Numbered from the stretch's first letter, positions 10,949-56,804 are shown. The stretch is 64,000 bases of DNA from Dehalococcoidia bacterium (GCA_964291495.2 OZ219871.1:192001-256000), one strand, 5' to 3'. The notes: a model not told the origin generated them from the letters alone. Numbers and translations: made by a program.

Positions 10949-11745
10949 GCACGCAGTCGCCACCCGCCGCCGCCGCATCGAGGGGCACGGCTGCCCGCTG
11001 GGCGCTGACCGCCCTGCGCCCCATAGTCGCCGTCTACGACGCGCGCTGGACGCTGCTGCCACCGCTCACGGGCGCGGCGATGCTCGCGATGCTCGTCGGC
11101 GCGGTGATCGTCGCGCCGCGCGAGGCGATCGAGGGCGAGGTGCAGCGCCTCTTCTACATCCACGTGCCCTCGGCGATTGCCGCCTACCTCTGCTTCTCGG
11201 TCGTCTTCGCCGCCTCGGTCGCGCTGCTCTGGACGCGCAACCTGCGCTTCGATGCGGTCGCGCGCGCGGCGGCGGGCGTGGGCGTGCTGTTCACGGCGCT
11301 GACGCTGGCCACCGGCGCGATCTGGGGCAAGCCGATCTGGGGCGTGTGGTGGGCCTGGGACGTGAGGCTCACGAGCACCCTCGTGCTGCTGCTGATCTAC
11401 GCCGGCTATCTGTTGGCTCGCAGCCTCTCCGAGCGCACCGACGTGCAAGCCGCCCGCTACGCCGCGGTCTTCGCGATCATCGGCTTCGTCGACATCCCGA
11501 TCATCAACCGCTCCGTGAACTGGTGGCGCACGCTGCACCCCGACCCGATCGTGACACGCATGCCGGGCGACCTGGGGCTGCCGAACTCGATGCTGGCCGT
11601 ATTGATGCTCGGCATGGTGGCGATCACGCTGCTCGCGCTGTGGCTGATGGCGCTGCGCTCCGAGGTCGAGCAGATCGGCGTGCGCAGCGACGACCTGCGA
11701 GGCGAGATCGACCGCCGCGAGGCGCAACGGAGCGGGGCTGCCTGA
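10945..11745 (+). CDS. ccmC: Heme exporter CcmC
   Basis: ATGA overlap with ccmB; YIHVP, WGKPIWGVWWAWDVRLT and WWRTLHP motifs. Confidence 0.95.
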   Translation: MSTQSPPAAAASRGTAARWALTALRPIVAVYDARWTLLPPLTGAAMLAMLVGAVIVAPREAIEGEVQRLFYIHVPSAIAAYLCFSVVFAASVALLWTRNLRFDAVARAAAGVGVLFTALTLATGAIWGKPIWGVWWAWDVRLTSTLVLLLIYAGYLLARSLSERTDVQAARYAAVFAIIGFVDIPIINRSVNWWRTLHPDPIVTRMPGDLGLPNSMLAVLMLGMVAITLLALWLMALRSEVEQIGVRSDDLRGEIDRREAQRSGAA

Positions 11746-19238: not shown

Positions 19239-19314
19239 GGGCCTGTAGCTCAGCTGGGAGAGCGCCACACTGGCAGTGTGGAGGTCAGGGGTTCGAGCCC
19301 CCTCAGGTCCACCA
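19239..19314 (+). tRNA. tRNA-Ala (GGC)
   Basis: 76-nt cloverleaf GGGCCTG...CAGGTCC-ACCA with G3:U70 Ala identity pair, anticodon loop CTGGCAG, GGTTCGAG T-loop, encoded CCA. Confidence 0.97.
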
Positions 19315-32452: not shown

Positions 32453-34525
32453 CTAGATGTTCCCGGCCGGGCCCGGCGGTCCCTCAGGCGGTTGCGTCGG
32501 CTCCGGCGTCGGGGTGGGTTCCGGAGTGGGTTCCGGCGTGGGTTCGGGTGTCGGCTCCGGGGTTGGCTCGGGCGTCGGTTCCGGAGTGGGCTCCGGGGTC
32601 GGCTCGGGTGTGGGTTCCGGAGTGGGTTCCGGAGTGGGTTCGGGTGTCGCCTCGGGCGTCGGCTCCGGCGTCGCCTCGGGCGTGGCGCTCGAATCCTCGG
32701 CGCCGGACGAGGTGCTGGTGGCAGGCGTCTCGATCGCGGCCGCCGTGGGCGTGCTCGCTCCGCCGCCGCTGGGCCCGTCGGCCTCGTTGCTCGTGCCCGG
32801 CGGGACGACCGGGGCCTGCGAGGCGACATGCATCACCATCCGCCTGCCGATGAAGATGGTGCCGTCCGAGACAACGAGGGTGATGTCGAAGGCGCCCTCG
32901 CGCTCCGGCGCGTGCCAGACGATCACGCCCGGGCTCCCGCTCTCCTCGACGACGCCGTCCGATGCGCTCCACTCAGGGTCGAGGTACGGCCCGTACGGCA
33001 GCTCGAGGTCGACAGCGGAGCCCTCGGCGAAGCTGCTGACGAGCTCTCCGAGGTCGGGCAGTTCGTCGCTCGGCGCCGCGCCAGCCACGGCGATGCCGCC
33101 GAGGCCGAAGCGCTCCGCGAGATCGAGGCGGAAGGCGGCCGAGAACCGGTTCTCCAGCCAGACGCTGCGGGGACCGCTGCGGCCCGCGTAGACGAAGCTC
33201 ACGGCCCTCGCGCCGTCGTCCCAGAAGAGGCCGCTGTTGCCGGCCTCGCGGTCGATGTTGATGGCCGCGACGGCGACGGTGTCCCCGGGCCCGATCGCGT
33301 CGGCGGCTGCATCGCCGAGCGCGCTCGCCAGCGCCAGCCCGTCCTGCAGCGTGAGCGGGCGGAGGCCGTCCGCTGAGCGCTCCCAGGAGCGCCGGTCGAT
33401 GATCAGCGAGACGCTCGAGAGGTCGAGCCCGTCGTCCTGCTGCCAGGCGAGCGCCTCCTCCAGCACCTCGTAGTAGATCGAGGCGTCGCGCGGAGCGCGT
33501 ACCCAAAGGCCGTCGCTGCTCGCCGCGAGCGCGGACCAGTCGTATGCGCCGAAGTTCGAGCCATCCCCCGCGGGGACCGCGACCACGAGGCCCAGGCCGC
33601 GCACCCGCGCGCCCTCGGCGAGCGCGGCGATGAAGTCGCTGAACGGCGCCCGCAGGGCGGGATCGAGCTCGCCGTAGTCGATCAGCAGCCCGCTCGCGCC
33701 CTGGTCCTGCGCCGCGATCAGCAGCTCGTCGACGTGCGCGGTGGCGAGCTCGGGCAGCGCCAGCAGCCGGTCCACCGTCTCCGCGACGACGCTGCTCCCC
33801 ACCGTCACGCCGAGGTAGACGCGCGCCTCGCCGGCTTCGGCGAGCGCCGCGTCGAGCGCACCGCCCTGGACGTCTAGCGCCGGCTCCCCGGCCGCGTCCT
33901 CGCCCGGCTCGGCGGCGATCACGGCGACGATCGCCGGTGCGGGCAACGCGCCCAGGTCGGGGGCCTCGCCGGCCTCCACGATCAGCGCGATCGTGCGCTC
34001 GATCGTGGTCTCGGCGAGGACAGCGATGTTCCTCGGCACGACCTGGACCTCGCCCTGCGCCGCGGCGCCGTCTTCGACCACGCTGACGGCCGCGAGATAG
34101 CGCCATTCGCCGCCGACGTAAGTGTAGAAGCCGAGTTGCTCGCCCGCGCGAACCGGCTCGCTCAGCAGCACCGTCAGCTCGGCCGGACCGGCGATCGCGC
34201 CGTCGCCCGCGAGGTCATAGAGCTTGCTGCGCGCGCTCAAACCGCCCGGCAGGTCGGGCAGCTCGCCGCGCGCGGCGGCGCCGACGTCGGCGGGCTCGTC
34301 CCCGCCGCGATCGATGATCGAGAAGGGCGACCAGACGAGGACGGCGATCAGTGCGGCGAGGACGGCAACGACACCGATGATGCGCAGGAGTCCGCCGCGG
34401 CCGCCGCCCTCGTCGTCATCGCCGTAGTCCTCGTCGAACTCCTCGAAGGGCGAATCGAAGTCGCCCTCGTCGAGGGGCGCGAACGATTCGGGGTCATGCC
34501 GGATTGGGGGGTCAGACTTGTCCAT
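32453..34525 (-). CDS. Membrane-anchored extracellular protein with degenerate GH18-like barrel, PKD-like domain and (EPTP)n tail
   Basis: N-terminal TM; GLLIDYGE, GAYDWSAL, VWLENRFS and FGLGGIAV resemble GH18 segments. Confidence 0.6.
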   Translation of the reverse strand: MDKSDPPIRHDPESFAPLDEGDFDSPFEEFDEDYGDDDEGGGRGGLLRIIGVVAVLAALIAVLVWSPFSIIDRGGDEPADVGAAARGELPDLPGGLSARSKLYDLAGDGAIAGPAELTVLLSEPVRAGEQLGFYTYVGGEWRYLAAVSVVEDGAAAQGEVQVVPRNIAVLAETTIERTIALIVEAGEAPDLGALPAPAIVAVIAAEPGEDAAGEPALDVQGGALDAALAEAGEARVYLGVTVGSSVVAETVDRLLALPELATAHVDELLIAAQDQGASGLLIDYGELDPALRAPFSDFIAALAEGARVRGLGLVVAVPAGDGSNFGAYDWSALAASSDGLWVRAPRDASIYYEVLEEALAWQQDDGLDLSSVSLIIDRRSWERSADGLRPLTLQDGLALASALGDAAADAIGPGDTVAVAAINIDREAGNSGLFWDDGARAVSFVYAGRSGPRSVWLENRFSAAFRLDLAERFGLGGIAVAGAAPSDELPDLGELVSSFAEGSAVDLELPYGPYLDPEWSASDGVVEESGSPGVIVWHAPEREGAFDITLVVSDGTIFIGRRMVMHVASQAPVVPPGTSNEADGPSGGGASTPTAAAIETPATSTSSGAEDSSATPEATPEPTPEATPEPTPEPTPEPTPEPTPEPTPEPTPEPTPEPTPEPTPEPTPEPTPTPEPTQPPEGPPGPAGNI
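32495..32686 (-). repeat. Imperfect 12-bp coding tandem repeat encoding (EPTP/EATP)n
   Basis: Repeated GTGGGTTCCGGA / GTCGGCTCCGGG units on the + strand. Confidence 0.9.
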
Positions 34526-50432: not shown

Positions 50433-50861
50433 ATGGCTACTTCGATCCGGCTCAGGGAGTGTCGCAACGAGGATGTCGACGCCGTGCTCGCGCTCTGGCG
50501 TCGCGCGGAGACTGTTCCACGCCCGACCGACCGTCCGGACGCACTACGGCAGCGGATTCAGCACGACGACGGACTCTTCCTTGTCGCCGTCGACGGCGAT
50601 CGCGTCGTCGGATCGTTGATCGGAAGCTGGGATGGCTGGCGCGCCGGGCACGCGCGACTGGCAGTGGACCCCGAGTACCGCCGCCATGGGATTGCGACCA
50701 GGCTCGTCGCGGAGGTCGAGCGCCGCCAAGTCGTCTTGGGCGCAGAGCGATCCACGATCCGCGTCTTCCACAACGAACCCGGCGCCGTGGCATTCTGGAC
50801 TTCGCTTGGCTACGTCGCTGACTCCGACGAATCGATCTACGTGAAGGGACTCGAACGATGA
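50433..50861 (+). CDS. GNAT acetyltransferase
   Basis: WDGWR, LAVDPEYRRHGIA and AVAFWTSLGY motifs. Confidence 0.88.
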   Translation: MATSIRLRECRNEDVDAVLALWRRAETVPRPTDRPDALRQRIQHDDGLFLVAVDGDRVVGSLIGSWDGWRAGHARLAVDPEYRRHGIATRLVAEVERRQVVLGAERSTIRVFHNEPGAVAFWTSLGYVADSDESIYVKGLER

Positions 50862-51964
50862 CGCGCGACCCGATGCAGACCCGGCTCTGCGACGAGTACG
50901 GCTGCGAGATCCCCCTCGTCGGCTTCGCCCACACCCGCGACGTGGTCGCCGCGGTGACGAACGCCGGTGGCATCGGCATGTACGGCGTGAACGCGCTGAC
51001 GCCCGAGGAGATCCGCAACGACATCCGCTGGATCCGCGAGCGCGTGGGCGACAAGCCGTTCGGCATCGACTTCCTGCTCTCCGCCTCGTACGTCGAGGGC
51101 ACGCCGGAGGAGCTGATGCCGCGCATCCCGCAGGAGCACTGGGACTTCGTCGACGGCGTGATGGCCGAGCACGGCATCCCGGAGCCGAAGACGCCCGGCC
51201 CCTGGGGCGTCAAGCGCGTCGACCTGCTGCGCAAGGCGCGCGCCAAGTTCGACGTGCTGATCGAGGAGCAGATCCCGATCTTTGCCTCCGGCATGGGGAG
51301 CCCCGCCTTCGCGCTGGAGCTGCTGCACGACGCCGGCATCAAGGTCTGGGGCCTGATCGGCCTCGCTCGCCAGGCGGCGCGGGAGCTGGAGCAGGGCCTC
51401 GACCTGATCGTGGCGCAGGGCCAGGACTCCGCCGGGCATACCGGGCGGATGGGCACCTTCTCGCTCGTCCCCGAGGTGGTCGAGCTGGCGCAGGCCTACG
51501 ACAAGCCGGTGCTCGCCGCGGGCGGCGTCACGCACGGCCGCCACATGGCCGCCGCACTCGCCCTCGGGGCGGACGGCGTCTGGACCGGCACGATCTGGCA
51601 GGCCACGCACGAGTCCGACACCTCGATGAAGAAGAAGCAGCGCCTCGTCGAGGGGCGCGGGCAGGACGCCTGGATCTCGACCGCCTACGACGGCAAGCGC
51701 GTGCGCGCGATGCGCTCGAAGTTCCAGGAGATGTGGGAGCGCGAGGACTCCCCCGAGATCCTGCCGATGCCGCTGCAGGGCATGCTCGTCGGCAAGATCG
51801 AGACGGCGATCGAGGACCACCAGCTCGACGACTGGCTGCATGTCACGGCTGGCCAGGGCCTGACCTTCATCGAGGAAGTCAAGCCCGCCCGCCAGGTCGT
51901 CTTCGACCTTGCCGACCAGGCGCGCGACGCCCTCGAGCGGCTCGGCGCCTACGGCGAGGAGTAG
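50858..51964 (+). CDS. Nitronate monooxygenase/FabK-family flavoprotein
   Basis: AAVTNAGGIG, VAQG..AGHTG, LAAGG and ALGADGVWTGT motifs. Confidence 0.9.
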   Translation: MTRDPMQTRLCDEYGCEIPLVGFAHTRDVVAAVTNAGGIGMYGVNALTPEEIRNDIRWIRERVGDKPFGIDFLLSASYVEGTPEELMPRIPQEHWDFVDGVMAEHGIPEPKTPGPWGVKRVDLLRKARAKFDVLIEEQIPIFASGMGSPAFALELLHDAGIKVWGLIGLARQAARELEQGLDLIVAQGQDSAGHTGRMGTFSLVPEVVELAQAYDKPVLAAGGVTHGRHMAAALALGADGVWTGTIWQATHESDTSMKKKQRLVEGRGQDAWISTAYDGKRVRAMRSKFQEMWEREDSPEILPMPLQGMLVGKIETAIEDHQLDDWLHVTAGQGLTFIEEVKPARQVVFDLADQARDALERLGAYGEE

Positions 51965-51979
51965 CGCGCGGCGATCGCG
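51940..51979 (+). repeat. 40-bp direct repeat, left copy (includes NMO stop codon)
   Basis: GCTCGGCGCCTACGGCGAGGAGTAGCGCGCGGCGATCGCG; 39/40 identical to 53924..53963. Confidence 0.95.
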
Positions 51980-53896
51980 CTAGCGGCGCGGCGGGCCGAC
52001 GGCGGAGCCGCCCCAGCAGACGATCTCGCCGTCTTCGGTGAGAGCGCAGGCACGCCCCCGCTCGCCGCGTACCGCCTTGTAGCGACCCGGAGGGGCCGCG
52101 AGCACTTCGGCCTCCCACCAGGGACCCCAACACGCGATGTCGCCGGCCTCGGTGATGCCGCAGGCGTGGTACCAGCCGAGACCCAGCTCCGTGAATCGCG
52201 TCGCGGGGGCTTCCGCGTACGCCGGTAACGAACCCCAGCAAACTGCCACACCGTCAGTGGCCAGGGCGCAGGTACCGGTCAGGCCCGCGCTGATCGATCG
52301 GTAGCGGCCCGACGCCGCGGCTGTCTGTCCGGAGTTGCTGCGGCCCCAACAAACGGCCGCCCCCTGCTCAGTCAGGGCGCAACTGTGGTCCCCTCCGGCG
52401 GCGACTGCCGAATAGTGACCGGCCGGGGCGTCAGACTCGCCCTCGTCGTTTTCGCCCCAGCAGGTCAGCTCCCCGCCAGTGGTCAGGGCGCAGACATGGC
52501 CCCCACCAACGCTCACGGCCTGGAACCGGCCGGGCGGAACGTCCCAGGCACGGAAGACATCGCCCCAGCAGACGATTCCTCCGTCCCCGTTCAGGGCGCA
52601 GGCCTGTCCACCGCCAACATCGATAGCCGTATACGGGCCCATTGTCGGCGCCCCGGCTCCGAGCGGCGTCTTGCCCCAGCAGGTGATCGTCCCCTCGGCG
52701 GTCAGCGCGCAGGCGTCGCGGTCACCGACGTCGAGCGCCACGTAGCGGCCGACGGGCGCATCCCAGGCGGTGTGGCCCCAGCAGATCAGACCCCCGCCCT
52801 CAGCCAGCGCACAGCTGTGAGCTGAGCCGACGGTCACGTCGATGTATCGGCCGGAAACGGGACGGGTGTTGCCGGACCTGTCGCGGCCCCAGCAGACGGC
52901 TTCCCCTTCGACGGTGAGGGCGCAGCTGTGCTGCGACCCTGCGCTCACCGCCATGAACGGCGCATACGACCGCCACGGCGCAGCGCCGCCCCATTGAGCG
53001 CCCCAGCAGGCGAGGTCGCCGTTCTCGTCGAGGACGCAGGCGTGGTTGCTGCCCCCCTCCACGGCAACGTAGCTCCCTCCACGTTCGAGGTGTTGGCCGC
53101 GGTTGCGAGACCAGCAAGCCAGACCTCGCTCGTGGGTGATCCCGCAGACCTCGTGACTGGCCACGCTCAGCGCGACATAGCTCCCCGGCAGCGAGTACGG
53201 CGTCCCGTCGGAGGTAGCTACGATGCATGTGATCGTGCCGCCGCTACTGAGCGCGCACCTGCCATACCCACCGGCGCTCACAGCGATGTAGCCGTCATCG
53301 GGCGCGGCGGGCAACGTGTGGGACTCCACGCCGGCGCCGCCCCAGCACACCGCCTCACCTTCGACGGTCAGGGCGCAGTTCGTATCGGCGCCGCTGCTGA
53401 GCGCCGTGTAGCGGCCCGAGGGGACATCGATCTGGCCGTAGTAGTTCTGACCCCAGCAGACGATCTCACCGTCCACGGTCAGCGCGCAGATGTGTGAATA
53501 GCCGGCGCTCGCCGCTACGTAGCGGCCGGGCGCGACACCGTTCGCGGCGTCAGCGGGGAGCGCGCCGGGGCGCCACGTCTCCGTATGAATCGCGTTGTAG
53601 CCGTTGACCGTGAAGGTCACTGTCGCCCCGCCGACGGCCTTGCCCGCGCAGCTACGCCAGCGCAGCTGCAAGAGCCACTCGTAGTTGGCGTTCGCGGTGG
53701 TCGTGGCGCAGATCGTGCCGTCGATCAGCGCGCTGATCTCGTCGCCCGGATTGGCGCGCCCGTAGTACGTGGCCGGAAAGAGCTCGCTCGCCTCGGCGGG
53801 CTGTGCCGTCACGATGATCCCAAGCAATACCGCCGCCAGCGCGACGCTGCCGACTGCCGCACGAGTCGATCGGCTGGCCGGGATCGCCCGCCTCAT
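51980..53896 (-). CDS. Secreted RCC1/BLIP-II-repeat protein (14 repeats)
   Basis: Signal peptide AxA; 14 copies of the pattern Y.A.SAG..H.CAL...G...CWG. Confidence 0.9.
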   Translation of the reverse strand: MRRAIPASRSTRAAVGSVALAAVLLGIIVTAQPAEASELFPATYYGRANPGDEISALIDGTICATTTANANYEWLLQLRWRSCAGKAVGGATVTFTVNGYNAIHTETWRPGALPADAANGVAPGRYVAASAGYSHICALTVDGEIVCWGQNYYGQIDVPSGRYTALSSGADTNCALTVEGEAVCWGGAGVESHTLPAAPDDGYIAVSAGGYGRCALSSGGTITCIVATSDGTPYSLPGSYVALSVASHEVCGITHERGLACWSRNRGQHLERGGSYVAVEGGSNHACVLDENGDLACWGAQWGGAAPWRSYAPFMAVSAGSQHSCALTVEGEAVCWGRDRSGNTRPVSGRYIDVTVGSAHSCALAEGGGLICWGHTAWDAPVGRYVALDVGDRDACALTAEGTITCWGKTPLGAGAPTMGPYTAIDVGGGQACALNGDGGIVCWGDVFRAWDVPPGRFQAVSVGGGHVCALTTGGELTCWGENDEGESDAPAGHYSAVAAGGDHSCALTEQGAAVCWGRSNSGQTAAASGRYRSISAGLTGTCALATDGVAVCWGSLPAYAEAPATRFTELGLGWYHACGITEAGDIACWGPWWEAEVLAAPPGRYKAVRGERGRACALTEDGEIVCWGGSAVGPPRR

Positions 53897-53923
53897 ACGG
53901 CCAGTGTACGCAGCCGAGCATCC

Positions 53924-53963
53924 GCTCGGCGCCTACGGCGAGGAGTAGCGCGCAGCGATCGCG
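53924..53963 (+). repeat. 40-bp direct repeat, right copy
   Basis: GCTCGGCGCCTACGGCGAGGAGTAGCGCGCAGCGATCGCG. Confidence 0.95.
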
Positions 53964-53985
53964 GGCAACGTAGCGAGCAACGAGA

Positions 53986-54007
53986 GAGCCGCCCTCGCGG
54001 GCGGCTC
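53986..54007. terminator. Hairpin terminator
   Basis: GAGCCGCCC-TCGC-GGGCGGCTC. Confidence 0.65.
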
Positions 54008-54035: not shown

Positions 54036-54806
54036 TTAGCGGCCCTTCCACTCCGGCTGGCGCTTCTCGGCGAAGGCGCGCGGACCCTCGGAGATGTCCT
54101 CGCTGGTCTCGACGCGGTGCAGCAGGTGCTTGGCCATGATCATCGCCTCGTCGTGCGGCAGCACGTGGGTGCGGTAGAGGATCTCCTTGAGGCAGCGCAC
54201 GGAGAGCGGCGCGTTCTCGGTCAGGATGTTGGCCCAGCGGTAGGCCTCGTCCAGCACGTCCTCCTTCGGGACGATCGAGTTGATGAAGCCCATCTCCTTG
54301 GCGCGCTCCGGCGTGATGTACTCGCCCATCAGCACCACCTCGAGGGCGTTGCCGAGGCCGATGATGCGCGGCAGGTCCGCCACCCAGTGCGGCATCAGCC
54401 CGCGCTTCACCTCGCGAATGCCGAGGATGGCGTCGTCCGCGCAGATCCGGAAGTCGGAGCGCTGCGCCATCATCCAGCCGCCGGCCAGGCAGTAGCCGTG
54501 GATCGCGGCGATCACCGGCTTCCAGACGTTCTCCGGGTTGCTGTTGCCGGTGACGCGCACCTTGCGCCAGTCGATGCCCTGGGCGTTCATCTCCGCGCGC
54601 TCCTTGAGGTCCATCCCCGCGGAGAAGGCGCGGCTGTCCGGGTGCGCACTGAGGATCGCGACCCAGATGTCGTCGTCCTCCTCGACCTCACGCCAGGCGT
54701 CGGCGAGCGCCTGGTTGAGCTCGAAGTTGAGCGCGTTCATGACCTCGGGACGGTTCATCTCGAGGTGTGCGATGTGGTTCTCGACCTTGAAGTTCAGGAC
54801 CGACAC
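54036..54806 (-). CDS. Enoyl-CoA hydratase/isomerase
   Basis: MNRPEVMNAL, FSAGMDL, KPVIAAIHG, REVKRG and FAEKR motifs. Confidence 0.93.
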   Translation of the reverse strand: MSVLNFKVENHIAHLEMNRPEVMNALNFELNQALADAWREVEEDDDIWVAILSAHPDSRAFSAGMDLKERAEMNAQGIDWRKVRVTGNSNPENVWKPVIAAIHGYCLAGGWMMAQRSDFRICADDAILGIREVKRGLMPHWVADLPRIIGLGNALEVVLMGEYITPERAKEMGFINSIVPKEDVLDEAYRWANILTENAPLSVRCLKEILYRTHVLPHDEAMIMAKHLLHRVETSEDISEGPRAFAEKRQPEWKGR

Positions 54807-55011
54807 GGTTACCCCCTGGTTGCTGCGTTCACATCCTTTGCTGAGCGCGGGTGAAGGTACGTCAACCCCCCGCCGAATGTCCACGCGCGCCGCCTGGACG
54901 CAGTCGGCGCCGCATCGCGTGCCGCCGCTTCCCGGCGCGCCCGATCTCCTCGAACCCCGCCGCGCGAGCGCGCGGGCGGGTGCCCATAACGGCGCGCCCC
55001 GGGCGCGTTCC

Positions 55012-55049: not shown

Positions 55050-55172
55050 CCGGATCGGCCTCGGGAGGTGTGTCTCGCGAGGCGCGACCGGGCGCCGCGC
55101 GCTCCCCCGCCGCGAGTCTATCGAGGGCGGCGCGTATCATCCCCGGCGGACGATCGGGCGAGAGGAGCGGCC

Positions 55173-55964
55173 ATGGACCTGTCGACGTACGAGCACATCG
55201 AGTTCCGGCGCGAGGGCGACGTGCTGGTGATGACGCTAAACCGGCCGGAGCGCCTCAACGCGGTGCACCCGCCGCTGCGCATGGAGCTGATCCGCGCCTT
55301 CAACGAGCTGGACGACGACGAGTCGCGCGCCGTCGTGATCACCGGCGCGGGCCGCGCCTTCTGCGCGGGCGGCGACGTGCAGCGCATGGACGAGCAGGGC
55401 GGCAGCAGCACGCGCGCCAAGTTTGCCCAGGTGCGCACCGGCGAGATCGTGCGCGCGCAACTCGACCTCGAGAAGCCGTGCGTCGCCGCCGTGCGGGGCC
55501 CGGCGATCGGCCTCGGCGCGAGCATCGCGCTGATGTGCGACGTGGTCGTCGCCTCGGAGACCGCGCGCATCGGCGACCGGCACGTCAACGTCGGCCTCGT
55601 CGCCGGCGACGGCGGCGCGCTGATCTGGCCGCTGCTGGTCGGCCTGAACAAGGCCAAGGAGCTGCTGATGCTCGGCGACCTCGTCGAGGGCGAGGAGCTG
55701 GAGCGGCTCGGCATCGTCAACCACCTCGTGCCGGACGAGGAGCTGGAGGCGCGTTCGCTGGAGCTGGCGCAGCGCCTCGCGGCGATGCCGCCGTACGCGG
55801 TGAAGGCGACGAAGATCACGGTCAACACGCTGCTGCGCGACAAGCTCTCCGCGGTCCTCGACCTCGGACTGGCGTACGAGCACTACTCGGCGAAGATGGC
55901 CGACCACCGCGAGGCGACGCGCGCCTGGTCGGAGCGGCGCGACGGCGTCTTCACCGGCGAGTAG
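55173..55964 (+). CDS. Crotonase-family enzyme (His/Asp type)
   Basis: LNRPERLNA, FCAGGD and GDRHVNVGLVAGDGG motifs. Confidence 0.9.
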   Translation: MDLSTYEHIEFRREGDVLVMTLNRPERLNAVHPPLRMELIRAFNELDDDESRAVVITGAGRAFCAGGDVQRMDEQGGSSTRAKFAQVRTGEIVRAQLDLEKPCVAAVRGPAIGLGASIALMCDVVVASETARIGDRHVNVGLVAGDGGALIWPLLVGLNKAKELLMLGDLVEGEELERLGIVNHLVPDEELEARSLELAQRLAAMPPYAVKATKITVNTLLRDKLSAVLDLGLAYEHYSAKMADHREATRAWSERRDGVFTGE

Positions 55965-56006: not shown

Positions 56007-56804
56007 ATGGCGGACTACGCGGGCTACGAGACGATCACGATCGAGCGGCAGGAGCGCGTGCTGCGGCTGACCATGAACCGCCCGGAGGCGCTCAACGCCT
56101 TCAACGCGCAGATGCACGAGGAGCTGTCCCGCCTCTTCGTCGAGATCGACATGGACCCCGACACGGACGTCGTGGTGCTGACCGGCGCCGGCCGCGCCTT
56201 CTCCGCCGGCGGCGACATGGGCTGGCTACAGGAGATGATCGACGACCCCTCGGTCTGGGACCGCACCAGCACCGAGGGCAAGCGCATCGTGCTCTCCATC
56301 CTCGAGGCGCGGCAGCCGGTGATCGCGCGCATCAACGGCGCGGCGGTCGGCCTGGGCGCGACGGTCGCGCTCGCCTGCGACGTCACGTTCGCCGCCGAGG
56401 GCGCGCTGATCGGCGACCCGCACGTCAGCGTCGGCCTCGTCGCCGGCGACGGCGGCAGCACGCTCTGGCCGGCCCTCGTCGGTTACGCGCGGGCGCGTGA
56501 GTTCCTCTACACCGGCGAGCTCATCGAGGCGACGCGGGCGGCGGAGCTGGGCCTCATCAACCACGCCGTGCCCGCCGAGGAGCTTGACGAGGTGGTCGAC
56601 GCCTTCGTCGCGCGCCTCGCGAACGGTCCGACGGTGGCGATCCAGGGGACGAAGGCCTCGATCAACCAGCCGCTGCGCGACACTGCCGTGACCAACCTCG
56701 GCCTCTCGCTTGCCCTCGAGGGCATCTCGAACGTGAGCGCCGACCACCAGGAAGGCATCACCGCCTTCAAGGAGCGCCGCGAGCCGAAGTTCACGGGACG
56801 CTGA
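56007..56804 (+). CDS. Crotonase-family enzyme (His/Asp type)
   Basis: MNRPEALNA, FSAGGD and GDPHVSVGLVAGDGG motifs. Confidence 0.9.
   Translation: MADYAGYETITIERQERVLRLTMNRPEALNAFNAQMHEELSRLFVEIDMDPDTDVVVLTGAGRAFSAGGDMGWLQEMIDDPSVWDRTSTEGKRIVLSILEARQPVIARINGAAVGLGATVALACDVTFAAEGALIGDPHVSVGLVAGDGGSTLWPALVGYARAREFLYTGELIEATRAAELGLINHAVPAEELDEVVDAFVARLANGPTVAIQGTKASINQPLRDTAVTNLGLSLALEGISNVSADHQEGITAFKERREPKFTGR

Follow-up and report, generated by a model that had tools for sequence, protein, structure and literature searches.

The window analysed here, a stretch of 64,000 nt from a Dehalococcoidia bacterium in which all coordinates are counted from the first letter, contains an extra gene between the convergent genes for a nitronate monooxygenase (NMO) and an enoyl-CoA hydratase, bracketed by two 40-nt direct repeats which carry the 3′ end of the NMO gene. 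Comparison of the same gap in related genomes makes it probable, in our judgement, that the repeat is a scar left by an "insertion with long target duplication", an old insertion of a gene that took place without a recombinase. The locus comprises the following features.

50858..51964, plus strand: NMO gene, whose last 25 nt open the left repeat (open reading frame, ORF; translation; Pfam PF03060 NMO, 1.3e-43)
51940..51979, plus strand: left 40-nt repeat copy, with the NMO codons for LGAYGEE, the stop codon and 15 nt of intergenic DNA (sequence comparison, shuffles)
51980..53896, minus strand: inserted gene, referred to as the cargo, of 638 amino acids (ORF; Pfam RCC1_2, 6.8e-66)
53897..53923, minus strand: upstream segment of the cargo, 27 nt, with a −10-like TACACT at 53908-53903 (sequence; hexamer kept in the relatives L004 and L005, see below)
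53924..53963, plus strand: right 40-nt repeat copy, an orphan NMO 3′ tail followed by 15 nt (repeat search, shuffles)
53964..53985, no strand: native intergenic spacer (GGCAACG...), found directly 3′ of the single NMO tail in empty sites (alignments)
53986..54007, no strand: bidirectional hairpin terminator with a 9-bp GC stem and a 4-nt loop (hairpin analysis; conserved in all loci reaching that far)
54036..54884, minus strand: enoyl-CoA hydratase gene, the conserved right neighbour, whose listed GTG start may lie too far upstream (Pfam ECH_1, 1.5e-53)

The two repeat copies are identical at 39 of 40 positions and form the sole direct repeat of more than 90% identity that encloses a gene-sized segment within the window. 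With up to three mismatches allowed, the 40-mer occurs twice in the window, and two matches were reached in none of 100 dinucleotide-preserving shuffles (mean 0.00). Its first 25 nt correspond to the last eight codons of NMO (the first of them represented by one base) together with the stop codon, and the remaining 15 nt are intergenic. The 1,944 nt between the copies are occupied by one minus-strand ORF, the stop codon of which (CTA on the plus strand, 51980-51982) abuts the left repeat, while its ATG is separated from the right repeat by 27 nt. Coordinates and alignment therefore agree with the initial annotation of this DNA, which had described a 40-bp duplication of the last 25 nt of NMO and 15 nt downstream, with exactly one gene between the copies, its stop adjoining the left copy and 27 nt with a TACACT box preceding its ATG. 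The hairpin had been placed after the right repeat, as expected of an empty site with the order NMO-repeat-terminator, and both the spacer and the terminator of the window do continue as they do in empty sites.

No inverted repeats flank the insert, no attC-like structure was found in it or adjoining it, and no integrase or transposase is encoded among the 22 ORFs between 29.7 and 61.6 kb of the window, which are housekeeping or metabolic genes; the earlier remark that no integrase, inverted repeat or attC is visible holds both for the insert ends and for this set of ORFs. Among the related loci described below, an integrase was likewise found neither in nor beside the insert in the six occupied loci (the window being one) or in the remnant locus L002. 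Three types of element were considered and rejected. Duplications made by insertion sequences (IS) are usually shorter than 40 nt, and an IS or transposon insertion was discarded on the length of the repeat, already judged excessive for an IS target site in the initial annotation, and on the lack of terminal inverted repeats and of a transposase. An integron cassette was set aside for want of an inverted repeat at the insert ends and of an integrase among the 22 ORFs, and an integrase att site because no integrase was found in those loci or ORFs and there is no constant att core, as the right copy ranges from ~17 nt to more than 150 nt and the left boundary shifts. A foreign composition of the insert was not substantiated either: its overall GC content is the same as that of the flanks, and the lower G+C content at third codon positions (GC3) of the cargo, 0.83 vs 0.94-0.98 in the adjoining genes, still falls inside the lower tail of the window genes and is not decisive.

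Relatives were collected in one scan of a genome collection with the NMO protein, which returned 15 loci (L001-L015). Ten of these (L001-L010), from metagenome-assembled genomes titled Dehalococcoidia or Chloroflexi, are orthologous to the window locus, with amino acid identities to the window of 93-98% for NMO and 90-95% for the enoyl-CoA hydratase and with flanks 85-95% identical at the nucleotide level; L011-L013 are paralogous (NMO 71% identical), and L014 and L015 are distant (36% and 27%). The gap between NMO and the hydratase gene exists in several states. An RCC1-like gene is present in L004, L005 and L009, the products being 65, 59 and 62% identical to the window protein, respectively, and an unrelated gene for a lipoprotein-like protein with a Thr/Pro-rich linker in L006 (863 amino acids) and L007 (longer). 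The gap is empty in L010, L008 and L002, where NMO and the hydratase gene lie 114, 214 and 91 nt apart, and in L003, where 165 nt without a gene precede the end of the contig within the terminator; the state of L001 could not be assigned, its contig ending 77 nt past NMO. The 11 genomes including the window are thus divided into four with an RCC1-like cargo, two with the other cargo, four empty and one unassigned. At the collinear sites L010, L008 and L002 the inserts are absent although the flanks are 90-95% identical to the window. An empty allele, which the initial annotation had proposed to seek in relatives, is accordingly found in L010, L008 and L003 and also in L002, and relative to these alleles the window carries an insertion.

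An NMO-derived copy is located to the right of the insert in all six occupied loci, so that a gene in this position without repeats, a case for relatives that the initial annotation had envisaged, was encountered in none of them. The extent of this copy is variable. In the window it consists of 25 coding nt and 15 nt; in L004 and L005 it is degenerate and comprises ~17-19 coding nt and intergenic DNA; in L006, L007 and L009 it consists of NMO nt 749-783 fused to nt 1052-1107, followed by the whole intergenic region and the terminator, and the duplications of these three loci exceed 150 nt. The two blocks of L007 match NMO at 29/30 and 60/61 positions, and since the internal deletion is identical in L006, L007 and L009 the orphan copy is of one origin. 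The left-hand boundary varies as well. It lies before the terminator in the RCC1 alleles, which lack the central part of the left intergenic copy with its terminator, and after the terminator in L006 and L007, where the left intergenic DNA is a complete second copy, hairpin included, which reaches the position of the hydratase stop codon, exactly where the stop codon of the cargo is found. The heptamer GATCGCG directly precedes the cargo stop in six of six occupied loci and in L009 precedes the hydratase stop too. Each of the window copies matches the single NMO tail of the empty loci L010, L008 and L002 at 31-34 of 40 positions, and beyond the right copy the window has the same order as the empty sites, GGCAACG... 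followed by the terminator. Because the NMO-derived copies differ so widely in extent among genomes, the 40-mer of the window would be a trimmed remnant of a longer target duplication, the original unit of which appears to have included at least the NMO sequence from nt ~749 on and the intergenic region with its terminator.

A tree of the flanks (7,760 columns) is split into two clades, one of L004, L005, L009, L006 and L007 and the other of L001, the window with L002, and L003 with L008 and L010. The root falls between them both by midpoint and in an NMO tree rooted with three paralogues as outgroup (support 89/82, 85/84). The RCC1 allele with the same right junction is found in both clades, in the window in one and in L004 and L005 in the other, so that two events suffice with an occupied ancestor, against three with an empty one. 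As the insertion is common to species with 5-15% nucleotide difference in the flanks, it appears to be old. With this polarity the clean empty sites L003, L008 and L010 look like the products of secondary, precise loss, as recombination between the repeats would give. L002, the sister of the window, keeps TCAGCGGCGCGGT, 13 nt corresponding to the RCC1 stop codon and the last four codons, fused to the terminator, which points to a deletion with end points other than the repeats. The cargo would then have been lost at least twice, once cleanly and once by the unrelated deletion seen in L002.

The cargo has diverged much further than its neighbours. For the RCC1-like genes synonymous divergence (dS) amounts to 0.62-0.82 and the ratio of nonsynonymous to synonymous divergence (dN/dS) to 0.33-0.40, the corresponding values being 0.08-0.20 and 0.07-0.20 for NMO and 0.11-0.14 and 0.22-0.25 for the enoyl-CoA hydratase; the gap in dS may in part come from the extreme GC3 of the flanks (0.94-0.98 vs 0.77-0.83). 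The divergence is also uneven along the gene. Identity between L004 and L005 is 91-97% in the initial ~400 nt and 53-77% beyond; between L004 and L009 it is 55-78% at the start and 92-100% in the final ~700 nt. The RCC1 cargo gene is a mosaic, diversifying by internal recombination and not by moving as a unit. The two repeat copies of the window, 39/40 alike, share a window-specific GAGGAG as well as the GATCGCG end and match any copy in the other genomes at no more than 34/40 positions; the left and right copies within the other five occupied genomes agree at 26-33/40 positions (L004 and L005 at only 26-28/40). The homogenisation thus seems to be specific to the window genome, and we infer that it reflects gene conversion in the lineage of the window and not a fresh insertion, because the junctions of the window are homologous to those of L004 and L005.

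The history that we favour would begin in an ancestor of this Dehalococcoidia clade, in which the space between the convergent NMO and enoyl-CoA hydratase genes received a gene for a secreted protein without the help of a dedicated recombinase, by illegitimate recombination, homology-facilitated recombination or template switching. Insertion and duplication would be simultaneous, the likeliest route being a single event, either homology-anchored illegitimate joining or a replication template switch returning upstream of its departure point, which would put the cargo past the intergenic region and produce a further copy of NMO tail and intergenic region behind it. The target duplicated in this way, at least NMO nt ~749 to the stop codon and the intergenic region with the terminator, would leave NMO intact in the left copy and an orphan NMO tail in the right copy, which now provides the DNA upstream of the cargo. 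Deletions specific to each lineage would later have shortened both this orphan tail and the left intergenic copy, leaving the window with 25 + 15 nt, and the window copies would then have been homogenised to 39/40, most simply by gene conversion. From then on the locus has behaved as a polymorphic slot for an RCC1/BLIP-II-like propeller, a lipoprotein-like protein or nothing, with the RCC1 gene reshuffled by recombination.

Several points weigh against this history. The cargo encodes a secreted propeller protein without a nuclease, whereas the published cases concern restriction-modification genes. Duplication and insertion in one step are not readable from the present sequences, and a repeat with 39/40 identity is surprisingly clean for an old scar, which calls for a further assumption, either gene conversion or local re-duplication in recent times. 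The short-tail and long-tail alleles are not interconvertible by deletion alone, which requires recombination between alleles or more than one event. The position of the root, and hence the polarity of empty and occupied states, has moderate support by both rootings (the 89/82 and 85/84 given above), and the comparison comprises 11 genomes from one scan of one collection.

The order of events could have been the reverse, a tandem duplication of NMO (whole or its 3′ third) and the intergenic region coming first, with the cargo arriving later between the copies and the right NMO decaying. The orphan copy reaching at least to NMO nt 749, in frame, in L006, L007 and L009 fits such a course, as does the left intergenic copy of L006 and L007, complete to the hydratase stop position as a tandem duplication of NMO tail and intergenic DNA would give. 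We nevertheless regard it as unlikely: an intermediate, with two NMO copies and no cargo or with a longer second NMO, was found in none of the 10 loci, two independent rare events at one spot would be required, and such a course gives no reason why the stop codons of two unrelated cargos should directly adjoin the duplicated intergenic DNA.

Integrases that target the 3′ ends of genes restore the gene upon integration, and the duplication described here also covers and restores a gene 3′ end; tRNA examples of integration of this kind are discussed in the sections of PMC2853133 consulted. The repeats might accordingly be the attL and attR of a site-specific integrative element that has lost its integrase module, with a cargo possibly mobilisable in trans, and the presence/absence polymorphism with some clean empty sites would suit this origin. 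It is, however, still less likely than a preceding duplication. No integrase lies in or beside the insert of the six occupied loci, in the remnant locus L002 or among the 22 ORFs of the window, the repeats differ in extent (17 nt to over 150 nt) and in boundary (on either side of the terminator) and have no constant core, and the insert is a single gene of host-like overall GC content.

The initial annotation had taken the insert for a self-contained, self-expressing cassette captured by site-specific or homology-driven recombination and possibly excisable as a phase-variable surface module. A part of this survives, as the slot does take an alternative cargo (L006, L007), but the 40-mer cannot be called a defined recombination site when the extents of the copies vary so much. 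The apparent age of the insertion, the loss in L002 that bypassed the repeats and the internal mosaicism of the gene speak against a self-contained mobile cassette. Cassettes exchanged actively by homologous recombination at the NMO tail, independently of any recombinase and with on/off or allele switching of a surface protein, would be compatible with the near-identity of the window repeats, unlike those of the relatives, with clean empty sites nested in an otherwise occupied clade, with a cargo far more diverged than its flanks, and with two unrelated cargos in one slot that have a promoter region in common: the upstream region of the L009 cargo is the same as that of the unrelated cargo of L006 and L007 up to 12-19 nt from the start codon. 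We find such exchange improbable all the same. Forty nucleotides are a poor substrate for homologous recombination, L004 and L005 retain the gene with repeats only 26-28/40 alike, the sole loss that left a trace did not use the repeats, and variation within the gene is mosaic, so that exchange is not cassette-wise. Furthermore, the cargo genes, the 27-nt upstream segment and the long upstream region of L009 and L006 were found nowhere else in the window and the 15 loci. The initial annotation had also proposed a search for other single genes bracketed by such repeats. Our screen for direct repeats of at least 25 nt, at least 88% identity and a spacing of 0.3-8 kb covered the window and the 15 loci and yielded none, apart from the similarity between enoyl-CoA hydratase paralogues and the internal repeats of RCC1 genes. 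Neither site-specific capture nor an active or phase-variable cassette is thus supported by the comparison.

A more far-reaching version, which we hold to be similarly doubtful, would see in the NMO-tail/terminator module a recombinase-free cassette slot, the right copy providing the promoter and the left copy the end of transcription, conversion keeping the copies alike, and genes for secreted beta-propellers (RCC1/BLIP-II-like or PD40-like) being swapped, precisely lost and regained by homologous recombination of the host. If this were true, an uncultured Dehalococcoidia lineage would diversify its cell surface by means of what amounts to a minimal integron lacking an integrase. Chance similarity or an assembly artefact is highly improbable: the contigs of L001 and L003 end shortly after NMO and the region can be hard to assemble, but the repeat was reproduced in 0 of 100 shuffles and the order NMO-insert-NMO tail-terminator-hydratase recurs in five independent assemblies, several of them megabase-scale contigs or chromosomes.

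The expression "insertion with long target duplication" was reportedly coined by Nobusato et al. in 2000. According to the portions of the study by Furuta, Abe and Kobayashi (2010; PMC2853133) used here, such insertions have target duplications of more than 30 bp and of variable length, lack mobility genes, and often have repeats which span the stop or start of a neighbouring gene; the examples include 46-bp repeats overlapping 15 bp of a gene 3′ end and repeats of up to ~420 bp. Restriction-modification cargo was the search criterion of that study and an insert size below 20 kb a further criterion, DNA breakage by the cargo was suspected and the mechanism was left open. The present locus has the same anatomy. 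A gene-sized insert is absent from collinear relatives, the repeats exceed 30 bp, are variable in length, both align to the single copy of the empty site and overlap the 3′ end of the neighbour, and the insert of 1,944 nt (below 20 kb) holds an RCC1_2 gene only, with no transposase or integrase in the 22 neighbouring ORFs. It differs from the cases in those portions of the study in that its cargo is not a restriction-modification gene and has no DNA-cleaving activity, in that the event is old and decayed, with alternative cargos in the same slot, and in that the host belongs to an uncultured Dehalococcoidia lineage which is not among them. Within the literature on such insertions that was surveyed, no title among those listed had Chloroflexi or propeller proteins as its subject.

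The kind of insertion is therefore already described, and what is informative here is the non-nuclease cargo. Insertions with long target duplication are known mainly for restriction-modification genes, which led to the idea of the cargo nuclease as the driver; a non-nuclease case in a distant uncultured phylum speaks for recombination or replication by the host being sufficient to produce them. The locus would also illustrate how such a scar ages, through trimming, loss of a terminator, homogenisation by conversion and use for precise loss, and how genes for secreted proteins that diverge fast can occupy a single gap between metabolic genes over long periods. A practical point for annotation is that a short perfect repeat of a gene 3′ end is not necessarily an att site.

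Three other systems offer partial parallels. In Rhs, contact-dependent inhibition and type VI secretion effector loci, displacement of C-termini and orphan modules have been proposed to arise via homology-facilitated illegitimate recombination (PMC5361080, as far as its consulted sections describe). The features in common are an anchoring of the new DNA in the conserved gene upstream, a former 3′ end that persists downstream as an orphan, and modules that differ by strain; unlike there, NMO is a metabolic enzyme with an invariable tail, the new DNA is a separate convergent gene and not a new C-terminus, and there is a single orphan instead of an array. Conserved core genes may also border integration hotspots, or replacement-type flexible genomic islets. 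The conserved flanks of our locus similarly hold non-homologous genes for surface or secreted proteins or nothing, with no mobility genes and with a cargo more diverged than the flanks, but a target duplication marks the original insertion and the islet is a single gene. Finally, the inserts share with integron gene cassettes the single-gene unit, the one orientation and the fixed slot, and differ from them in the absence of an attC-type palindrome, of IntI and of an array and in having their own ribosome-binding site and a promoter beside the cassette.

The 638-amino-acid product of the cargo gene begins with a hydrophobic helix typical of a signal peptide, followed by an Ig-like beta domain (amino acids 38-127, nt 53516-53785) and a C-terminal part of ~14 repeats of ~37 amino acids each, short propeller blades of the RCC1/BLIP-II type (Pfam RCC1_2 in nine stretches). 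The AlphaFold (AF2) model is all-beta, with a mean predicted local distance difference test (pLDDT) score of 79.9 and of ~90 in the repeat units, and its best matches among solved structures in Foldseek were BLIP-II (1e-17), a secreted beta-lactamase inhibitor protein, the CRINKLY4 ectodomain, UVR8 and RCC1; BLIP-II was also found by sequence alone with phmmer against the PDB (5.5e-15). A word-based search with residues 1-130 gave no match, and the relatives of the N-terminal domain emerged in an exhaustive HMMER search, 214 of them at E ≤ 0.001, many as tandem arrays; in the two large proteins checked the arrays were Pfam Big_13/Big_6 Ig-like domains. The family of the whole protein is very large (1,278 matches at E ≤ 0.001 among 7,998 scored candidates), and the word search with the whole protein returned general RCC1-family proteins only, at 26-41% identity, and not the orthologues of the loci described here. 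From the signal peptide, the repeats, the model with its structural matches and the Big_13/Big_6 relatives, the cargo is most plausibly a secreted or surface protein of Ig-like and propeller domains. The other cargo, in L006, had no significant Pfam family, and a lead to PD40/WD40-like repeats was weak, its recognition being below the usual threshold.

On the minus strand TACACT lies 6 nt before the ATG of the cargo, and the hexamer with its 6-nt spacing is kept in the two relatives with the same type of upstream region, L004 (TACACT) and L005 (TACATT). A full sigma-70 promoter was not recovered upstream of the cargo by a consensus scan. The closeness of the conserved hexamer to the start codon suggests that the transcript is leaderless, and the −35 region of the promoter would be supplied by the right repeat copy. 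The G+C-rich hairpin 3′ of that copy, in which 53986-53994 pairs with 53999-54007, has z scores of −2.05 on the plus and −2.49 on the minus strand, and no comparable hairpin lies between the stop codons of NMO and the insert (z +1.25). In empty alleles the hairpin is the common terminator of NMO and enoyl-CoA hydratase; in the window NMO would be left without a terminator of its own and faces the cargo gene tail to tail, the two stop codons being separated by 15 nt (51965-51979). Both stop codons sit in a 7-bp palindrome (TAGCGCG ... CGCGCTA), and read-through antisense transcription at this convergence seems possible. Another palindrome, GCGATCGC, known as a highly iterated palindrome of cyanobacteria, is present within both 40-nt copies and was considered as a notable feature; with 22 occurrences in the window against 13.6 ± 3.1 expected it is unremarkable.

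Several features of the gap in the relatives were recorded in passing. The RCC1-like gene of L009 (8131-10050, minus strand) has one in-frame stop at residue 255, by which it is either a pseudogene or affected by a sequencing error, and its encoded N-terminus and upstream region are unlike those of the window, L004 and L005. In L006 (8108-8190 vs 10951-11031), and in L007 likewise, the left intergenic copy beyond the terminator (GTGTCTGCGGC.GAG) is closer to the other clade (window, L002) than to its own right copy, either through later divergence of the right copies or through an origin of the left copy from donor DNA. An IS5-family transposase gene (L005:10228-11202, plus strand; Pfam DDE_Tnp_1 2.6e-28, DUF772 1.1e-20) has the terminator on one side and the hydratase gene on the other and is not part of the RCC1 insert; an IS has therefore entered this intergenic gap as well. 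The otherwise empty gaps of L008 (8126-8260) and L003 (8190-8265) contain an element of ~130 nt resembling a miniature inverted-repeat transposable element, with the hairpin core CGTCATTCCGGCGAAAGCCGGAATCC and apparently in opposite orientation in the two loci, and the empty intergenic region of L010 (8130-8170) contains a 19-nt tandem duplication (CGCCCCTCCCGGACACAAA / CGCCCTTCCCGGACACAGG). The paralogous loci L011, L012 and L013 (7001-8089) represent a second NMO gene in the genomes of L003, L010 and L008, at another locus with no cargo gene adjoining; they were considered as donors and rejected, as they hold no cargo homologue and the orphan tails match the resident NMO and not the paralogue.

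Elsewhere in the window the only RNA gene detected is a tRNA-Ala (GGC) at 19239-19314 (plus strand), with no element integrated beside it. A 690-amino-acid protein encoded at 32453-34525 (minus strand), with no Pfam family, has a C-terminal (PEPT)n linker derived from 12-nt tandem repeats (32480-32697), which recalls the Thr/Pro-rich linker of the L006 and L007 cargo, with no similarity in tblastn. The hydratase gene to the right of the insert is the first of three adjacent paralogous enoyl-CoA hydratase genes (54036-54884, minus strand; 55068-55964 and 56007-56804, plus strand), in which a 146-nt stretch (55497-55642 vs 56337-56482) is 77% alike, with a 48-nt core 96% alike.

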